From assembly GCA_044448905.1 (NCBI GenBank), contig JBIOHJ010000002.1:1-55324 (forward strand): 55,324 nucleotides of DNA. The letters are read 5' to 3'. This document shows, piece after piece, positions 11,221 through 18,845 of the stretch. Position 1 is the first letter of the stretch. Each line of letters begins with the position of its first letter. Position numbers and translations under genes: made by a program. A model generated the notes under the pieces. The model saw nothing but the letters and a program-made list of their open reading frames with translations, did not search any database and had not been told where the DNA came from. The stretch comes from Bacteroidia bacterium. Its GTDB lineage: Bacteria; Bacteroidota; Bacteroidia; AKYH767-A; OLB10.

Positions 11221-12322
11221 ATGGAAAATTTTTTATCTATACATTATTATAAAATTATTTATTGCGTATTTTTTGTTTGCTCAGTAAGCTTTTCATTTTT
11301 AATGAACAGTCTTTTCCTGCGGTTTTTCTCCACACTTGGCATTCGCAATCAAAATGACGGTACCATTATACGTTGGGGCGCGCAAAGCAAGCCGGCAATT
11401 GGCGGATTATCATTTTATATTTTGTTTCTGATTTCGGTTGCGAGCTATTCTTTTTTCTTTAAACCCACACAGGTTTTTTATAACATGCAGTTTGTGGGGC
11501 TGCTTATTGCAATGGCAATAGGTTTTATTATCGGGTTATATGATGACGCGTATGATACGAGGCCGTTTTTAAAATTTTTCGCCCAGCTGTTGTGCGGGCT
11601 GGCGCTGGTTTTTTCAGGAATGTATATTAAAATTTTTTCTGATGATTACCTCAACTACCTGTTTACTTTGTTTTGGGTGGTGGGCATTATGAATTCGATT
11701 AATATGCTCGATAATATGGATGCTATTACCACGATTGTGGGAATTAATATTGTGATGGGCTCCATCCTGATGATTGTTATTCATAACGATTTTGAAAACA
11801 TGCACCTTATTGTTTTGGTTGGGGTGCTTTCTGCGATGTTTGGTTTTTTATATTACAACTGGCACCCTTCGAAAATGTATATGGGCGATACGGGCAGCCA
11901 GTTCCTGGGTATTTTCCTTGCGGCAATGGGCATTATGTATTTCTGGAATGATAATTATGAGTTGCAAACTCACTCGCAGGCAAAACAATTTATTACGGCT
12001 GTGCTGGCATTTATAATGCCCATATTTAGATACTACGGTGGTTGTTATTAACCGGCTGAGGAAACGAACTTCGCCTTTTGTGGGCGGCAAGGATCATACT
12101 ACTCATGCGTTAGCCATGCTGGGAATGAGCGACCGAGTGGTAGCCATTACTTTTGCCATACTTTCGTTTGTTTCACTTTGTTTGATATATGTGATGAATG
12201 TATATATCCTTGACTGGACGCATACCTATACTGTTATATTTTCAATCTATATACTTACCCTGCTGGGTAGTTTTTTTTATATAACTACAAAAGCGAAGGG
12301 TAAGAAGCTTAAAAAAGTGTAA
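11221..12322 (+). pseudogene. WecA/MraY-family (GT4 polyprenyl-phosphate sugar-1-P transferase) gene with a +1 frameshift near 12019-12024
   Basis: Frame 1 (276 aa) carries NMLDNMDA and MGDTGSQFLG and stops at 12049. Frame 2 reads ..PYLDTTVVVINRLRKRTSPFVGGKDHTTH.. from 12020 to 12322, the expected continuation. The junction lies at a CCC run. Confidence 0.75.
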
Positions 12323-12324
12323 GG

Positions 12325-13251
12325 TTAGTTTTTTACAAACTTTTTTCTCACCCCGTTTATCTCAATAAAATATATTCCGCTTTTTAAGGATTGAATATTG
12401 ATTATTGAAGATTGAAAATTGATTGCGGATTTTAATATTTCTTTTCCCATCATATCATAAATTTTTATTTCTTTTTCCTGAACATTGAACATTGAACATT
12501 GAACTTTTAACTCCTCTCCTGCCGGGTTTGGTGAAATGGTAAATGTGGAAGTGTTATTTGATGTTTCGTTTATGCCGGTGCATAGTGTTAGGGAGACATC
12601 GTCAATATATATATAAGCTCCATGAAAAGCTTCAGAAGTATCTGTTATGACGCTTGTATTTGCATCATCTTTGAAATTTCCGATAATTAAATAATTTTCT
12701 CCTCCGGTGGCAGTGTAGTTACCGCTTATTAAAACCCAATTTATTGTATCTGATATGAATCCGGTAGTATTAATAAGCTGAGGGATATAGACTAAAAGCG
12801 AATCATTATTGATACCATCAATTAACGTATCGGAAAAATAAATACCTATATCATCAGTAATGCTTTGAACCTTATCGGGTGCATTAACATACATTTCAAA
12901 ATGATAACAGGCATTGGCAATTAATGGCGAAATAAAATTTGCTTCTATATATTCCCGGTAATTTGGGAATGCGCTGTCAGCAATAAGTACTATACCGCAA
13001 TAAGCGCCTCCACTATGCGCTTGCTGAGAACCTAATATGTTATCAGGAACACCTACAAATTGGCTACCACATTGATTATAATAATCTACTGAAGCTGCTG
13101 TTGGATTAATCCAAAATAATACAGAATCAAACTGATTCAAACTTGTCGGACATCCTATGTACCCCTCAAACCCCCCATTCGGCACTAAATTTTGCCCCCA
13201 TCCCACGAAAGTGGTTGAAAGTAAAAATAAGATGAATAAATATTTTTTCAT
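12325..13251 (-). CDS. T9SS type A sorting-domain protein (cargo of unknown function), paralog A
   Basis: 308 aa with signal MKKYLFILFLLSTTFVGWGQ, N-terminal NLVPNGGFE.Y.GCP motif, and C-terminal SPNPAGEEL...IKIYDMMGKE...SGIYFIEING CTD. Confidence 0.8.
   Translation of the reverse strand: MKKYLFILFLLSTTFVGWGQNLVPNGGFEGYIGCPTSLNQFDSVLFWINPTAASVDYYNQCGSQFVGVPDNILGSQQAHSGGAYCGIVLIADSAFPNYREYIEANFISPLIANACYHFEMYVNAPDKVQSITDDIGIYFSDTLIDGINNDSLLVYIPQLINTTGFISDTINWVLISGNYTATGGENYLIIGNFKDDANTSVITDTSEAFHGAYIYIDDVSLTLCTGINETSNNTSTFTISPNPAGEELKVQCSMFNVQEKEIKIYDMMGKEILKSAINFQSSIINIQSLKSGIYFIEINGVRKKFVKN
12390..12431. repeat. heptanucleotide array ATTGANN x6 inside CTD coding sequence
   Basis: attgaat|attgatt|attgaag|attgaaa|attgatt|gcggatt; encodes ..SAINFQSSIINIQSL.. 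on the minus strand. Confidence 0.8.
12479..12504. repeat. heptanucleotide array TGAACAT x3.5 inside CTD coding sequence
   Basis: tgaacat x3 then tgaact; encodes VQCSMFNVQ on the minus strand. Confidence 0.85.
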
Positions 13252-13265
13252 GCGTTATTGCCTGC

Positions 13266-14225
13266 CTACCGGCAGGTAGATTTTACAAACTTTTTACGCA
13301 CCCCGTTTATTTCAATAAAATATATTCCGCTGTTTAAAGATTGAATATTGATTATTGAAGATTGAAGATTGATTGCGGATTTTAAAACTTCTTTTCCCAT
13401 CATATCATAAATTTTTATTTCTTTTTCCTGAACATTGAACATTGAACATTGAACATTCAATTCTTCTCCTGCCGGGTTTGGTGAAATGGTAAATGAGGAA
13501 GTGTTATTTGATGTTTCGTTTATGCCGGTTGCGCAGGGGGTGAGGGAGACATCGTCAATGTATAAATATATTCTATTATCAGTTGAGGAGCTATTAACAA
13601 CTATTGTATCAGTATTCATGTCGTCTTTAAAATTTCCAATTATTAGAAAACTTTCTCCTCCCTGAGCAATATAATTTCCACCAACTAAAGTCCAATTTGA
13701 TGAGTCAGGATTATTTCCTGTTATATTGTTAAATTGTGGAGTAAAAGGTAACGGAAGATAATTATTTATCCCTGTAATTGCTGAAACAGAAAAATAGGCG
13801 CCTATTGCATCAGTTGTATATTTAAAAATATCCGCAAGGCTAACTTTCATTTCGAAATGATAACAATTATTAATAATTAAAGATGATATTAAAGGAACCT
13901 CGATATATTCACGATAATTGGCATCATCCGATGAGAAAAGATAAATTCCACAATATGCATTACCGCTTTGTGTTATTTGATAACCAAAAACATTTGAAGG
14001 AACTCCAGCAATTCCATTGCTATTGCAACTATTAAAATAATCTGGTGTACCCGAAATCAGATATATGTTCGTAGCCGGATTCATCCAGAATAAACAAGAA
14101 TCCAGTTGCGCTAAAGAAGGTGGGCATCCCGAATACTGCTCAAACCCCCCATTCGGCACCAAATTTTGCCCCCATCCCACCAAAGTGGTTGATAATAAAC
14201 ATAATAAAAGGGTGAATTTTCTCAT
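13266..14225 (-). CDS. T9SS type A sorting-domain protein, paralog B
   Basis: ATG at 14223-14225 gives MRKFTLLLCLLSTTLVGWGQ (the track start 14234 is a TTG). It has the same architecture as paralog A, and the last ~95 aa are nearly identical. Confidence 0.8.
   Translation of the reverse strand: MRKFTLLLCLLSTTLVGWGQNLVPNGGFEQYSGCPPSLAQLDSCLFWMNPATNIYLISGTPDYFNSCNSNGIAGVPSNVFGYQITQSGNAYCGIYLFSSDDANYREYIEVPLISSLIINNCYHFEMKVSLADIFKYTTDAIGAYFSVSAITGINNYLPLPFTPQFNNITGNNPDSSNWTLVGGNYIAQGGESFLIIGNFKDDMNTDTIVVNSSSTDNRIYLYIDDVSLTPCATGINETSNNTSSFTISPNPAGEELNVQCSMFNVQEKEIKIYDMMGKEVLKSAINLQSSIINIQSLNSGIYFIEINGVRKKFVKSTCR
13340..13381. repeat. heptanucleotide array ATTGANN x6 (copy in paralog B)
   Basis: attgaat|attgatt|attgaag|attgaag|attgatt|gcggatt. 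Confidence 0.8.
13429..13456. repeat. heptanucleotide array TGAACAT x4 (copy in paralog B)
   Basis: Four perfect tgaacat units. Confidence 0.85.
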
Positions 14226-14240
14226 CAAAGCCAATTTAAC

Positions 14241-14408
14241 TTCTGGAAAATCTCCGTTTTCTTCTGGAAAATCTCCGTTTTCTTCTGTAAAAACTCTGTT
14301 TTCTTCTGAAGAATTTCTGTTTTCTTCTGTAAAAACTCTGTTTTCTTCTGGAGAATCTATGTTTTCTTCTGTAGAATTCCTGTTTTCTTCTGTAAAGAAA
14401 CCCTTTTT
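14241..14408. repeat. 8 x 21-bp tandem array (conserved core GTTTTCTTCTG, variable 10 nt)
   Basis: Units: ttctggaaaatctccgttttc (x2), ttctgtaaaaactctgttttc, ttctgaagaatttctgttttc, ttctgtaaaaactctgttttc, ttctggagaatctatgttttc, ttctgtagaattcctgttttc, ttctgtaaagaaaccctttttt. The array fills the gap between the stop of 14418-15359 and the start of 13266-14225. Confidence 0.9.
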
Positions 14409-14417
14409 TACTTTAGT

Positions 14418-15359
14418 TTATTTATGAAACACGCCTTGGTAAGCGGCTTTCTTTTCGTCATTGGGATTATGCAGGGTAACGGTTCCAAATCCTGTAGTAA
14501 TTACAAAAGGTTTACCCGGCTTAAGTACGATAGCAGTACCCGATGCGGTTTTGCCTTTGAATAATTCGAGGTCAAATTCACTTTCATTTATTAAAACACC
14601 TTCGTTAACAAGGTTTGTAAGCACTTTTGACGAACCAATATTTACTAAACCGTTGCGAACTATGCTTCCCTGTGGCGAGTTATCAATGGTATAACCCCAG
14701 TCGCCTGCCTTATTGGGGTTTGCCGCAAAGTTATCTTTCAAAAACCCGCCAATTCCCTGGCTGTGCGTGTTAACGGGGTCTATAAGCGCGTTGCGCTCGC
14801 CATATTTTGTTTCTTTATCAATGGCCATTTGCGCGGCATCCTGGCGGTGGGTGAGCGCGCTGGTGCAATTGGCTTTGTTTACGGTTAAATCAATGTCGGT
14901 ATTGTTGGTTAAAAACCCTTCTAACGGGCTTGTACCCGCAGGAAAGCTGGCGTGCTTATCAATAAGCGCTACTATGGCTGTAATTTTTTCTTCAACCGTT
15001 TTGGGGTACACAATTTTTTTACCGTTAACGGTTACACCCCAGTCGCCCAGCTTGCCAATATTATTTTTATAAAACGATTTTAAAAACTGCACACACTTGC
15101 GATGCTGCGCAAAGGCGGGTTTAAACAGCTTATCGGCTTCTTTGTACAGCTTTTCGCTGTCTTTTCCCAGCTGCTCGGCATCATCGTGTGCGATACCCGC
15201 AGCCGTTACAGCGGCCGCGTCATCGGCAAGCACAATTGAGTTTTCGGCAAGATAGATGTTAAGAATGCTTGCTGCGCCATCGAGCGTATGCTTTGCATTC
15301 ATTTTGTTGAACAAACGAACTTGCAATAAAAATTCGGTAGGATAAATTAATCTGCTCAT
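14418..15359 (-). CDS. hypothetical protein (no family recognised), internally duplicated FLK..F..N..K.GDWG.T motif
   Basis: 313-aa ORF with ATG start and no signal peptide. VQFLKSFYKNNIGKLGDWGVTV aligns with GGFLKDNFAANPNKAGDWGYTI. GC content is locally high. Confidence 0.65.
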   Translation of the reverse strand: MSRLIYPTEFLLQVRLFNKMNAKHTLDGAASILNIYLAENSIVLADDAAAVTAAGIAHDDAEQLGKDSEKLYKEADKLFKPAFAQHRKCVQFLKSFYKNNIGKLGDWGVTVNGKKIVYPKTVEEKITAIVALIDKHASFPAGTSPLEGFLTNNTDIDLTVNKANCTSALTHRQDAAQMAIDKETKYGERNALIDPVNTHSQGIGGFLKDNFAANPNKAGDWGYTIDNSPQGSIVRNGLVNIGSSKVLTNLVNEGVLINESEFDLELFKGKTASGTAIVLKPGKPFVITTGFGTVTLHNPNDEKKAAYQGVFHK

Positions 15360-15502
15360 GATGTTTTAGTTTTTTGAGGGTTAAAATTAAAATGAACAAA
15401 ATTTTGAACCCGAAAGAAAACAATAATTTTTAAATTTTCAAAATAATTTTGAATATATTTTTGATGAATCGAAATCAAAGCTCAAACCCCAAACCTATTT
15501 CA

Positions 15503-15510
15503 TAAATTTG
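15503..15510 (+). promoter_or_regulatory. -7 promoter box TAAATTTG
   Basis: Matches TAnnTTTG, 17 nt upstream of ATG 15528. Confidence 0.3.
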
Positions 15511-15527
15511 CACCCCTTTTGAGATTT

Positions 15528-18104
15528 ATGAGTAAACCGCGCACGATTACCAAACTGGTTTTACTTCTCGTTTTGCTTCCCGCCATCACCCTGGCGCAGC
15601 AAATGACGCGCATACGCGGCAAAATTACCGATGCCGAAACCAAAGAACCCCTGCCATTTGTGAGCGTTGCGTTTGTCGGAAAAAACATAGGCACCGCTAC
15701 CGATTTTGACGGAAGCTTCCTGCTCGAAACACAATGGGGCTCGGGCCAGATAAAAGTTTCGTACGTAGGCTACGAACCGCAGGTAAAAACAGTAATTGAC
15801 GGAAAAACACAAATCATAAACTTCGAGCTTAAAGCAAAAGCTACCCAGCTCAAAGAAGTGGTTGTTACCGATAAAAAGAAATACCGCAATAAAAACAACC
15901 CCGCAGTTGACCTCATAAAAAAAGTGGTGGATAACAAAGACCGCAACCGCAAAGAAGGATTTGATTTTTATAATTACGATAAATACGAAAAAGTTGAATT
16001 CGACCTGAACAACATTACCGAAGATTTTAAAAACAGCAGGGCAATGAAAAAATTCCAGTTTGTTTTTAATTATGTCGATACATCGGAGCTAAACGGAAAA
16101 CCTTACCTGCCGCTTTGGTTTAAAGAAAGCAAATCGAAAGTTTACTACCGCAAAGACCCTCAAAACGAAAAAGAATATTTGCTCGGCACCAAGCAAGTAG
16201 GTTTCGAAGGCTACGTTGACGAGCAGGGCCTGAGCAATTTCATCGAAAACCTTTACCAGGAAATAAATATATACGAAAACAATATTGATTTGCTTACCAA
16301 CCAGTTTGTAAGCCCCATTTCAATCATAGCGCCCACGTATTATAAATTTTTCATAATAGATACACCCACCGTTAGCGGAGTAAAGTGCATAAACCTTGCA
16401 TTCATTACGCGCAACAAATCCGATTGGGGTTTTATGGGTAACCTCTACGTTGTAATGGATTCATCCTATGCCGTAAAGAAAGTTGAAATGGGTATTCCCA
16501 AAGACATTAACCTCAACTGGGTGCAGGGATTAAGAATAGAACAGGAGTATGATACAGTAGCCAATGTGGGAATGATGCTTTCGCGTGATGAGATTACCAT
16601 TGATTTCAACATTTCTAAAAAAGGAAAAGGATTGCAGGGAAAAAAAACCACTTCGTACATAGATTATCATATAAACGAACCGCTGCACGATAGCTTATTC
16701 AGCGGTGTAACACACATCATAAAATCGGACAGCGCCATGGAACGCAGCGAAGAGTTTTGGGAAAACGAGCGTCCCGAAAAACTTACCGAAGCTGAAAGCG
16801 GCATTTACGAAATGATTGACAGCGTTCAGAATGTTCCTGCTTTTAAAAACTTCATGAATGCCCTGTTCCTTGTAATAACAGGTTATACCGATGTGGGTCC
16901 GGTTTCAATTGGCCCGGTAGGTTCATTTTATAGTTTTAATGAAATAGAAGGCTTTCGCGGAAGAGTCGGGTTTAAAACCCTACCTGCATTCAGCAAGAAA
17001 TTCATGTGGGAAACCTTTGCGGCTTACGGGGCTAAAAAAGAATTTAACGAACATGTGTATACCCAAAAAGAACGGTTTAAACATTTCAATGCGGTAACCT
17101 ATACTTTCAACAAAGACAATATAGTTTACCCGTATCATTATATCCGGACATCTTTCGCGCATGATGTTGAAATTCCCGGTCAGAAATTACAATTTGTTTC
17201 CGAAGATAATTTCCTGCTTTCATTCAAGCGTGGCGTTAACGATAAAATGTTTTTTAATGATATAATGAAGTTCGAATATCTGCGCGAACACCGGAGCGGC
17301 CTCACATATAACTTTGTTCTGAAACATCTTGAGCAAAAACCTTTCGGTAATCTTTCCTTTCAGTATGAGCCCGGTGTGCTTGAACCCTTTCAGGGACAGG
17401 TTACTTCCAGCGAACTGATTGTTGATTTGCGCTTCGCTCCCAACGAACGTTTTTACCAGGGAAAAGTTTACCGTGTTCCCATTTTTACAAAACACCCCAT
17501 CTTCAGGCTCACCAGCACGTTTGGGTTCAAAGATGTTTTTAACAGCCAATATAGTTACCAGAATATCCAGTTCGGATTTTTCAAACGCGTTTATGTTTCG
17601 CCTTTTGGCTATGGCGATTTGAATGTTGAAGCCGGAAAAATATTTGGCCGGGTTCCCTATCCGTTGCTCACGTTTCCAAAGGCCAATCAAACGTATTCCT
17701 ACCAGCTCGAGTCGTATAACCTCATGAACTTTCTCGAGTTCATACACGATGAATATGTGGGATTAAATTACCAGCACTTCTTCAACGGATTTTTCTTTAA
17801 TAAAATTCCGCTGCTTAAAGAATTGGAGCTGCGCGAAGCCTGTTCCATAAAAGTATTGTACGGAAGAATTACTGATAACAATAACCCTGCGTATCACCCT
17901 GGCGAACTATTTATATTCCCCATTGATGAAAATGGAAAACCGATTACCTTTACGCTTGAGGGAAAACCTTATATCGAAGTAAGTGCCGGTGTAATGAATG
18001 TGTTTAAAATATTACGGGTGGAAATCATCAAACGGTTAACCTACCTCGATAATCCTAATGTTTCCGATATTGGTTTTAGGGCAAGAGCTAAATTTGATTT
18101 TTAG
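15528..18104 (+). CDS. carboxypeptidase-regulatory-like domain protein of the DUF5686-type (~860 aa, outer-membrane associated)
   Basis: ATG 15528 gives MSKPRTITKLVLLLVLLPAITLAQQ (the track start 15519 is a TTG). It has an N-terminal CarbopepD_reg-like IRGKITDAETKEPLPFVSVAFVG..TDFDGSF. Length and architecture fit my memory of DUF5686 proteins. Confidence 0.7.
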   Translation: MSKPRTITKLVLLLVLLPAITLAQQMTRIRGKITDAETKEPLPFVSVAFVGKNIGTATDFDGSFLLETQWGSGQIKVSYVGYEPQVKTVIDGKTQIINFELKAKATQLKEVVVTDKKKYRNKNNPAVDLIKKVVDNKDRNRKEGFDFYNYDKYEKVEFDLNNITEDFKNSRAMKKFQFVFNYVDTSELNGKPYLPLWFKESKSKVYYRKDPQNEKEYLLGTKQVGFEGYVDEQGLSNFIENLYQEINIYENNIDLLTNQFVSPISIIAPTYYKFFIIDTPTVSGVKCINLAFITRNKSDWGFMGNLYVVMDSSYAVKKVEMGIPKDINLNWVQGLRIEQEYDTVANVGMMLSRDEITIDFNISKKGKGLQGKKTTSYIDYHINEPLHDSLFSGVTHIIKSDSAMERSEEFWENERPEKLTEAESGIYEMIDSVQNVPAFKNFMNALFLVITGYTDVGPVSIGPVGSFYSFNEIEGFRGRVGFKTLPAFSKKFMWETFAAYGAKKEFNEHVYTQKERFKHFNAVTYTFNKDNIVYPYHYIRTSFAHDVEIPGQKLQFVSEDNFLLSFKRGVNDKMFFNDIMKFEYLREHRSGLTYNFVLKHLEQKPFGNLSFQYEPGVLEPFQGQVTSSELIVDLRFAPNERFYQGKVYRVPIFTKHPIFRLTSTFGFKDVFNSQYSYQNIQFGFFKRVYVSPFGYGDLNVEAGKIFGRVPYPLLTFPKANQTYSYQLESYNLMNFLEFIHDEYVGLNYQHFFNGFFFNKIPLLKELELREACSIKVLYGRITDNNNPAYHPGELFIFPIDENGKPITFTLEGKPYIEVSAGVMNVFKILRVEIIKRLTYLDNPNVSDIGFRARAKFDF

Positions 18105-18149
18105 TATGTGGTTATTCGTAAATTCGTACCCATTTGTACTTCATAGATA

Positions 18150-18845
18150 ATGCTGAAAGAAATTGCACAGGAAACCGTTTATAAGATCATAAACCCGCTT
18201 GTAAAGCTATTGGTGCGGATGCATGTTACCCCCAATGCGATAACCACGATCGGGCTTTGCCTGAATATTGCAGCTGCAATTGTTTTTATCATAGGTGCTG
18301 AATTTGGTGAACGTGGTGATTTAAGTTATGTAGGAATTGGCGGTGCCGTTATTTTATTTGCCGGCCTGTTCGATATGCTTGACGGGCAGGTGGCGCGCAT
18401 CGGCAAAATGACTTCACGTTTCGGTGCTTTGTATGATTCGGTTTTAGACCGCTACAGCGAACTGATTATGTTTCTCGGTATTTGTTATTACCTCGTTTCG
18501 CAAAATTATTTTATGAGCTCTTTAATTGCCTTCATGGCGCTTATTGGTTCAATGATGGTGAGTTATACACGCGCTCGTGCCGAAGGGTTAGGTATTCAAT
18601 GCACAGTTGGTTTAATGCAACGGCCTGAGCGTGTTGTTATCATAGGGATTTCTGCAATTGCGTGTGGTATCATTTCTATGTTTATTGGCGGTGACTTCAA
18701 ATACTATGTAAGTTTTCTCCCGTTTTATTTATACGAAACCATTACTTTTTTTACATTTCCTATTCTTATTGTTGCTATCCTTTCGAATTATACAGCAATC
18801 GACAGGCTCAGGTATTGTAAAAAAGAGCTGGAAAATAAAAATTAA
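18150..18845 (+). CDS. CDP-alcohol phosphatidyltransferase (candidate phosphatidylinositol-phosphate synthase)
   Basis: 231-aa polytopic protein with the signature DMLDGQVARIGKMTSRFGALYDSVLDRYSE (DGxxAR..G...D...D). It lies beside an inositol-1-P synthase gene. Confidence 0.8.
   Translation: MLKEIAQETVYKIINPLVKLLVRMHVTPNAITTIGLCLNIAAAIVFIIGAEFGERGDLSYVGIGGAVILFAGLFDMLDGQVARIGKMTSRFGALYDSVLDRYSELIMFLGICYYLVSQNYFMSSLIAFMALIGSMMVSYTRARAEGLGIQCTVGLMQRPERVVIIGISAIACGIISMFIGGDFKYYVSFLPFYLYETITFFTFPILIVAILSNYTAIDRLRYCKKELENKN

Follow-up and report, generated by a model that had tools for sequence, protein, structure and literature searches.

A strict 21-bp tandem array follows the gene for a 313-residue protein family in Bacteroidia and may act as a DNA docking lattice

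Introduction

What is a tandem array of 21-bp units doing in the spacer between a gene for a 313-aa protein and a gene for a cargo protein of the type IX secretion system (T9SS), and to which of its two neighbours does it belong? The array in question lies in a stretch of 55,324 nucleotides from a Bacteroidia bacterium (GTDB lineage Bacteroidota; Bacteroidia; AKYH767-A; OLB10; assembly GCA_044448905.1, contig JBIOHJ010000002.1), referred to here as the window. An earlier reading of the letters alone, hereafter the original prediction, described eight tandem units filling the spacer upstream of the cargo gene and offered as candidate roles a cooperative binding platform, an iteron-like element, a copy-number rheostat and a structured intercistronic RNA. 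The comparison of this locus with its homologues in other genomes and metagenomes reveals a conserved module, made up of the 313-aa gene (P0001, the "orphan" of the original prediction) followed within 0-250 nt of its stop codon by a non-coding array whose units, about 3-10 in number, recur strictly every 21 bp.

Results and Discussion

The array and its units

The array is real and non-coding. Tandem Repeats Finder (TRF) assigns it a period of 21, 7.5 copies, 85% matches, 0% indels and a score of 209, and it fills the spacer of 192 nt that separates the 313-aa gene from T9SS cargo gene B (Table 1). The core, GTTTTCTTCTG, is present in seven exact copies on the forward strand, starting at 14256, 14277, 14298, 14319, 14340, 14361 and 14382, with a spacing of exactly 21 bp. 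When one mismatch or fewer is allowed, the window contains 11 matches to this core against 1.77 expected, and 0 of 100 shuffles get to 11. On the strand of the genes (the reverse strand) the full unit consists of CAGAAGAAAAC followed by 10 variable nt, and there are seven such units, purine- and A-rich in this sense orientation. The count of eight tandem units therefore needs amendment: seven are full units with the exact core, and the eighth is partial, with only CTTCTG of the core left (CAGAAG on the reverse strand). This partial unit is followed by AAATTGGCTTTG and then by the ATG of cargo gene B on the reverse strand.

The division of each unit into an 11-nt core and a 10-nt variable part reflects a real core and linker structure, the invariant 11-nt run being longer than expected from shuffled positions (p = 0.014), and the strict phasing at two helical turns is likewise upheld by a period of 21 without indels. 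Further details of the original prediction also stand. Units 1 and 2 are identical (both GAAAATCTCC), as are units 3 and 5 (both TAAAAACTCT), and TTTTC-N5-GAAAA dyads are present in the GGAAAATC units. The array starts approximately 10-20 nt from the stop codon of the 313-aa gene (14418-14420) and ends 15 nt before the ATG at 14225, with no room for a canonical promoter between array and cargo gene B, and the second cargo paralogue, gene A, has no array. Further occurrences of the core, which the original prediction had proposed to look for, were not found: there is no other copy of GTTTTCTTCTG at 21-bp spacing anywhere in the 3.19-Mb genome. A relic does, however, lie on contig 71. This relic of the window array type (C71:2234-2289; L029 1509-1556) comprises 2.3 units and carries the CAGAAGTTAAATTG junction; the genes on its two sides, for a fatty-acid desaturase and a response regulator, both have their 3' ends towards it, and it adjoins no 313-aa gene and no cargo gene.

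Linkage of the array to the 313-aa gene family

The distribution of the array among P0001 homologues is revealing of the gene to which it belongs. A 21-bp periodicity is found just 3' of the stop codon in all 41 homologue loci, where the array is clear in 37 and weak in 4; these loci represent at least seven genomes as well as unrelated metagenome contigs, with protein identities down to about 20%. More specifically, a 21-bp array lies directly 3' of the stop in 17 of 17 genomic homologues and is present in both of the closest metagenomic homologues. Among 16 further paralogues the array is clear in 12 and the best lag is 21 in every case (lags 15-27 tested), and it is also present in six of six family representatives that were picked at random at different ranks of an exhaustive profile search and come from unrelated samples. 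The background in the organism's own genome is about 70 arrays per roughly 2,900 genes. Across the family the unit sequence is private to each locus; the paralogue on contig 37, for example, has 64% identity to the 313-aa protein of this locus and a different array.

In most loci laid out in register the array starts 0-90 nt after the stop codon. No fixed distance separates the array from the next Bacteroidota-type -7 box, which lies 48 to 330 nt away, and the downstream gene is equally variable. Of the roughly 23 family loci that extend far enough downstream, 7 by our own count have T9SS cargo genes of varied kinds 3' of the array, the array adjoining the cargo start codon at this locus and at loci L076 and L031, while at the other family loci the downstream neighbour is a housekeeping gene several hundred bases off or a convergent gene. 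The modules as a whole lie between unrelated housekeeping genes, such as queA, NAD kinase, gcvP and bamA/uppS. Because the downstream neighbour and the distance to the -7 box vary while the start of the array stays near the stop codon, the array is coupled to the 3' end of the 313-aa gene and not to the downstream gene. The view of the array as chiefly an attribute of the T9SS cargo gene is thus abandoned: the array follows the 313-aa gene in 41 of 41 loci, whereas among the 10 cargo-B-like genes of this genome only 3 are preceded by an array, two of which follow a P0001-type gene.

Within the order, 7 of 146 genomes have homologues of P0001; a sample of 400 further genomes from the phylum added one, a weak match. 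The homologues often occur in multiple copies (12, 10 and 7 in three genomes). An empty site or cassette borders, sought by way of orthologues of the neighbouring DUF5686 gene, were not recovered, synteny stopping at that gene, and the surroundings of the modules showed no sign of a transposase, an integrase or terminal repeats. Two metagenome contigs (L126 and L129) end inside or just after the array, an indication that such arrays break short-read assemblies. At locus L130 a 181-aa gene has been called on the opposite strand over an inverted array and is probably spurious.

Core conservation, turnover and orientation of the arrays

The core and linker structure of the window array extends to the family. 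Invariant positions form contiguous cores of 8-14 nt across the family arrays (Fisher-combined p = 6e-8 over 21 arrays, median run 8). The sequence of the unit changes rapidly by comparison with the protein, the best-register unit identity being 11-19 of 21 at 78-84% protein identity and falling to the shuffled level (about 10 of 21) once protein identity is 50% or less. Positions that are invariant in both of two compared arrays match more often than others (odds ratio 1.8, p = 0.002). Unit sequence thus turns over fast while period and position persist.

A metagenome contig with a 55% homologue (L077, 3970-4276) carries ten nearly identical units of a new variant (97% matches) followed by one window-type unit, TTTCCAGAAGAAAAC. 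The new-variant units look like a recent amplification, which would show how turnover happens. In the same contig 23 codons left over from a cargo signal peptide (MKKIILLIGLLSAALVGKGQNL*) follow TTTCCAGAAGAAAAC and immediately precede an intact cargo gene, and this junction of array and cargo gene looks like the footprint of a cassette replacement.

At six loci (L035, L037, L039, L079, L092 and L130), downstream of the 313-aa homologues, a direct sub-array is succeeded by an inverted one of the same core, a layout that by analogy is operator- or iteron-like. In two of them, L035 and L037, the direct and inverted arrays flank a terminator-like palindrome, GACTTTTAC...GTAAAAGTC. At L042 and L043 a terminator-like hairpin, read by eye and unscored, lies between the stop codon and the array, so that the array at these two loci may lie outside the mRNA of the gene. 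The phasing of A-tracts as a universal property of the arrays was rejected on inspection by eye, several arrays, L037 and L044 among them, having no A4 or T4 tract.

No common RNA fold and no strand preference emerge from 31 arrays, for which the mean folding z is -0.4 on the sense strand, and several arrays of about 160 nt fold at merely -3 to -5 kcal/mol. The window array has z values of -2.5 (sense) and -3.9 (antisense), which are due to its GAAAA/TTTTC dyads; these are absent from the homologous arrays. No Rfam match up to E = 1 was obtained for window positions 12000-16000 on either strand. The proposal of a structured intercistronic RNA accordingly finds no backing, since a shared fold is missing and the dyads are peculiar to the window copy.

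Other 21-bp arrays in the genome

Non-coding arrays with a period of 21, 42 or 63 number about 70 in the 3.19-Mb genome, that of the window included, and their unit sequences are unrelated (examples are C1:60445-60684, C49:1141-1578 and C73:9607-10058). Some of their units are palindromic, for instance TTCTGCGGATCCGCAGAA on C7. Counting TRF rows of three or more copies gives 68 for period 21, 37 for period 42 and 13 for period 63, and just one or two each for periods 18, 19, 20 and 22; period 21 outnumbers every other period of 9 or more. Such a sharply fixed period points to the helical repeat of DNA, because a step of 2 x 10.5 bp keeps a long array in phase. The arrays have 3-20 units each. 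Almost none lie inside long open reading frames (ORFs), and a dozen are without any open frame.

According to flank statistics based on simple ATG-to-stop ORF calls, 41 of the 45 arrays with two called neighbours sit in spacers holding at least one gene start, and 14 of 51 adjoin the start of a T9SS cargo gene. Other arrays precede several multi-copy, uncharacterised families whose members have a helical N-terminal part and a small C-terminal beta-sandwich. A divergent layout recurs, in which a 21-bp array occupies the spacer shared by a T9SS cargo gene and a small uncharacterised gene of this helical-plus-beta-sandwich kind (C13:30314-30492, C151:3141-3433, C31:15235-15474 and C112:2475-2669).

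One of these families, cluster 4, is found in 17 of 146 genomes, including all seven with P0001, and its genes have arrays upstream, also in a genome without P0001 (G025). HHalign gives no homology between P0001 and the other array-adjacent families (probabilities of 2.4% or less). AlphaFold models of P0001 and cluster 4 nevertheless place the secondary-structure elements in the same order, namely short helices plus a long helix, twice, and then a beta-sandwich of about 85 residues, within 312-313 residues. This likeness between predicted models is suggestive only as a link between the two families. About 100 kb from relatives that lack P0001 contain no such array, a sample too small to carry weight.

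The 313-aa protein

The P0001 protein has no signal peptide and is predicted with confidence by AlphaFold2 (mean predicted local distance difference test score, pLDDT, 93.6) to be elongated and to consist of two repeats, each of short helices, a 53-residue helix and a GDWG hairpin, followed by a C-terminal cupin-like beta-sandwich. In Foldseek searches the last ~85 residues match cupins and the helical part has no match. Sequence searches of P0001 against Pfam, NCBIfam, PHROG and the PDB returned no match, none of the 29 members checked matches Pfam or NCBIfam, and the named relatives are solely "hypothetical protein" entries from Bacteroidia metagenome bins. No tblastn match was found in 72,556 plasmid and 50,697 phage records.

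An exhaustive profile search yielded 596 clusters at 50% identity, in which the listed full-length entries are almost all 311-316 aa long. A length so nearly constant across very divergent sequences suggests a geometric constraint. The family alignment shows the same C-terminus in all members, and the net charge of the C-terminal domain ranges from 0 to +14 in the 29 members, being positive in 28 and neutral in one. By our arithmetic on the predicted model, the 53-residue helices measure about 80 A, against 71 A for 21 bp of DNA.

Flanking genes and transcription of the locus

The features of the locus, all on the reverse strand, are collected in Table 1. Between 14225 and 15359 this strand has no exact TAnnTTTG box except one within coding sequence, and thus none between the 313-aa gene and the ATG of cargo gene B; a single exact Bacteroidota-type -7 box lies about 130 nt upstream of the 313-aa gene. 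Because of this arrangement, co-transcription of the gene, the array and the cargo genes is the simplest reading at this locus and is consistent with its sequence. A scan with sigma-70 promoter and terminator models gave results at chance level, such promoter models being ill-suited to Bacteroidota.

Table 1. Features of the array locus in the window
Feature	Position	Strand	Basis and remarks
21-bp-period tandem array	14240..14396	-	Tandem Repeats Finder, pattern search against shuffles, sequence, core-run test
Partial gene-proximal unit (GGAGATTTTCCAGAAGTT on the - strand)	14238..14255	-	Sequence; CAGAAGTTAAATTG junction found again in the contig-71 relic
Short spacer from the TAA stop of the 313-aa gene to the first full unit (ACTAAAGTAAAAAAGGGTTTC, - strand)	14397..14417	-	Sequence, 21-nt register layout
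313-aa gene (P0001)	14418..15359	-	ORF; AlphaFold2 model; fold and profile searches
T9SS cargo gene B, 319 aa	13266..14225	-	Signal peptide at ATG 14225, C-terminal Por_Secre_tail domain; start 15 nt from array
T9SS cargo gene A, 308 aa	12325..13251	-	Second cargo paralogue, same putative operon, no array of its own
Bacteroidota-type -7 box TAGGTTTG	15490..15497	-	Sole exact one upstream of the 313-aa gene; a match to the consensus, which does not show function

Two other features of the region were observed in passing. Tandem repeats of 7 bp (ATTGAAT, TGAACAT) at window positions 12390-12504 and 13337-13457 lie inside the nearly identical coding regions for the C-terminal sorting domains of both cargo paralogues, and they also occur in a paralogue on contig 37. 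In the comparison with a second assembly (L075; region ~11417-18359), the glycosyltransferase-4 gene is called with at least 339 aa in that assembly and with 276 aa in the window.

Interpretation of the array

The array may serve a sequence-specific protein, probably one encoded by the adjacent gene, as a docking lattice on one face of the DNA, a reading that we hold tentatively and place a little below an even chance. It is the private repeat array of the upstream gene of the P0001 family, its cores recurring every two helical turns and so all presented on one side of the duplex. A putative sequence-specific protein would bind these cores cooperatively; the likeliest binder would be the protein encoded next to the array, which would act close to where it is made, and at this locus occupancy of the lattice would gate transcription from the 313-aa gene into both cargo genes. 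The action of the array as DNA, its binding by a protein, the identity of that protein as P0001 and the regulation of the cargo genes are all steps that we infer. Action at the level of DNA is favoured because the 21-bp period is so sharp in unrelated sequences, because the cores are contiguous and some sub-arrays inverted, and because no RNA fold is shared, and P0001 is the first candidate for the binder because the link between gene and array is absolute. Among the roles first proposed, that of a cooperative binding platform or iteron-like element remains the one that best fits a non-coding, phased array of cores and linkers.

Several observations weigh against a docking lattice bound by P0001. 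Some 68 other arrays of the genome have no P0001 gene beside them and arrays also occur in genomes free of P0001, so this protein cannot explain the array class as a whole. Fold searches detected no nucleic-acid-binding fold in P0001 (helix-turn-helix, HTH; winged-helix; or ribbon-helix-helix, RHH), and the isoelectric points of the family spread from 5.3 to 9.6. The units differ substantially even between proteins of 78-84% identity and reach noise level by 50%, which would demand very fast co-evolution of specificity, or else means that sequence matters little. Finally, the array is almost certainly transcribed here and at L076 and L031, which would allow a role at the level of RNA.

Fast turnover of the units, together with some 70 arrays of unrelated units and the same period in one genome, could instead reflect a sequence-indifferent class of minisatellites. 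A lineage-specific process (slippage, unequal exchange and an enzyme with a two-turn ruler are candidates) would make and homogenise arrays in 21-bp steps, and these would be tolerated or used just for phase-neutral length or DNA shape; the array would stay by the 313-aa gene as both move or are inherited as one cassette. The near-identical units beside one old window-type unit in L077, the geneless relic on contig 71, the patchy multi-copy families (7 of 146 genomes of the order, up to 12 copies each) and the position of module loci between unrelated housekeeping genes all agree with such a process. We nonetheless consider it rather unlikely, for the module holds the same place by the gene across paralogues of about 20% identity, which is hard to explain without selection, the variable positions cluster in the linker instead of being evenly spread, the cores are preferentially kept between relatives, and neither mobile-element genes, terminal repeats nor an empty site came to light. 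Still somewhat less probable is an RNA-level element, in which the array serves as the 3' untranslated region of the 313-aa gene, as the leader of the cargo mRNA, or both, and offers an unstructured platform of repeated motifs to an RNA-binding protein, perhaps P0001 itself, with control over how the cargo mRNA is translated or how stable it is. With the array 15 nt from the ATG at 14225 and no canonical -7 box between the genes on that strand, the array is almost certainly part of the cargo mRNA; it adjoins the cargo start also at L076 and L031, its unit is purine- and A-rich on the sense strand, and a T9SS cargo gene follows the array in 7 of about 23 family loci. An action as RNA does not, however, explain a period of exactly 21 in unrelated sequences, and it sits poorly with the absence of a conserved secondary structure, a strand preference or an Rfam family, with the inverted sub-arrays and the hairpins read by eye, unscored, between stop and array in L042 and L043, and with the many family arrays whose downstream gene is convergent or distant and unrelated.

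The remaining two explanations fare worse. The copy-number rheostat of the original prediction, or a phase-variation switch, in which read-through or promoter spacing for the cargo gene would be set by the number of 21-bp units gained or lost, seems very improbable to us. Tandem arrays are in general prone to slippage, orthologous arrays vary from 3 to 10 units, and several metagenome contigs break within the array; yet the array is base-for-base identical in a second public assembly (n = 2 only), in which 10 substitutions and 1 gap over 6.9 kb leave 99.84% identity, which lends the rheostat no support, the units are non-identical, which slows slippage, and a step of two full turns leaves helical phase unchanged and would therefore make a poor on/off switch. 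That the array encodes heptapeptide repeats (TEENRNS...) joining the flanking ORFs over a single TAA is barely credible, even though the window array is open in the frame of both flanking genes with one TAA between them. The cargo protein has a complete signal peptide of its own at ATG 14225, all members of the 313-aa family share their C-terminal end, no frame is open in a dozen of the genome's arrays, and inverted sub-arrays exist. At the three other loci compared (L030, L031 and L076) the flanking genes are out of frame, and one in-frame case in four is what chance would give. Coding or read-through is thus contradicted, frame continuity not being kept in homologues and the in-frame state at the window being a coincidence.

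Comparison with known repeat systems

In geometry and layout the module is closest to iterons and also close to the repeat centromeres of plasmids, yet it fails the defining tests of both. Iterons, as in P1 incA, mini-F incC, R6K, RK2 and pSC101, are direct repeats of ~17-22 bp set about two turns apart on one face of the DNA, with a conserved core, a variable remainder and a sequence private to the replicon; some origins add inverted copies, and in P1 incA and F incC one iteron array lies directly downstream of the rep gene. The module resembles them in repeat size, two-turn spacing, the core and variable build, private sequence and the position of the array 3' of a gene. It differs in that the adjacent P0001 lacks a Rep_3 or winged-helix signature (29 members, Foldseek), in that it is chromosomal, lies between housekeeping genes in up to 12 copies per genome and has no plasmid or phage match, and in that there is no second array upstream of the 313-aa gene. 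Nothing obvious in the way of an AT-rich unwinding element or DnaA boxes is present in the array-filled 192-nt spacer, for which no systematic search was made.

Repeat centromeres such as F sopC, R1 parC and pBtoxis tubC likewise place an array of binding sites beside the gene of the protein that coats it, with specificity private to the system; SopB, for example, has 323 aa and its gene is followed by 12 x 43-bp sopC. The order of gene and then array and the locus-private sequence are the same in the module, whereas no ParA, ParM or TubZ nucleoside triphosphatase is found among the scanned neighbours, P0001 has no ParB/HTH or RHH fold, and the module is not on plasmids. In type III toxin-antitoxin systems (ToxIN), repeats of ~34-36 nt with a defined RNA fold lie upstream of the endoribonuclease toxin gene and are private to each locus. 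The pairing of a short tandem array of private sequence with one adjacent protein gene is common to ToxIN and the module; the units of the latter are 21 nt long, lie downstream of the gene and share no RNA fold, and P0001 has no ToxN/AbiQ-like match. The sites of LytTR response regulators, which are paired 9-bp direct repeats with a 12-bp spacer and a family-wide consensus, have the same 21-bp centre-to-centre distance, in contrast to which the present arrays have 3-20 units and cores that are unrelated from array to array.

Within Bacteroidota, BrickBuilt of Porphyromonas gingivalis is a minisatellite-like miniature inverted-repeat transposable element whose copies share one unit sequence of 23 nt and have leader and tail subunits that end in inverted repeats (Klein et al. 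2015, PMC4596501). BrickBuilt (PMC4596501) and the arrays described here are alike in being intergenic and non-coding, with a unit of roughly two turns and many copies per genome. In the present arrays, by contrast, the unit is peculiar to each copy and repeats with period 21; common flanks were not seen, and the array of the window goes with a single gene family. A full-text search of the literature found no description of bacterial 21-bp arrays of this kind or of such a pairing of gene and array, BrickBuilt being the nearest. A CRISPR array, with identical repeats of 23-50 nt set between unrelated spacers and with cas genes close by, was considered and rejected: here a single consensus underlies both the 11-nt core and the 10-nt variable parts, and there are no cas genes among the neighbours.

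Conclusions

The linkage of P0001 to the array is without exception and provides a practical handle on intergenic arrays that have a fixed period and unrelated sequences. It also matters for annotation, as these arrays break assemblies and attract spurious ORF calls such as the 181-aa call in L130. A more speculative proposal, which we regard as distinctly unlikely, is that the proteins of the P0001 family, and perhaps the similarly built array-adjacent families, constitute a new class of lattice proteins that recognise specific sequences. Each 21-bp unit would be occupied by one rod-shaped protomer, whose two predicted helices of ~80 A roughly match the 71 A of two DNA turns, and head-to-tail polymerisation along the private array would yield a short nucleoprotein filament that acts, for neighbouring genes of T9SS cargo and surface proteins, as a switch or insulator private to the locus. 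If the interpretation of the array as a docking lattice is true, some uncultured Bacteroidota would carry dozens of private protein-plus-array modules, and these would amount to a regulatory or architectural layer without known DNA-binding folds or repeat families, partly wired to the cargo of type IX secretion.

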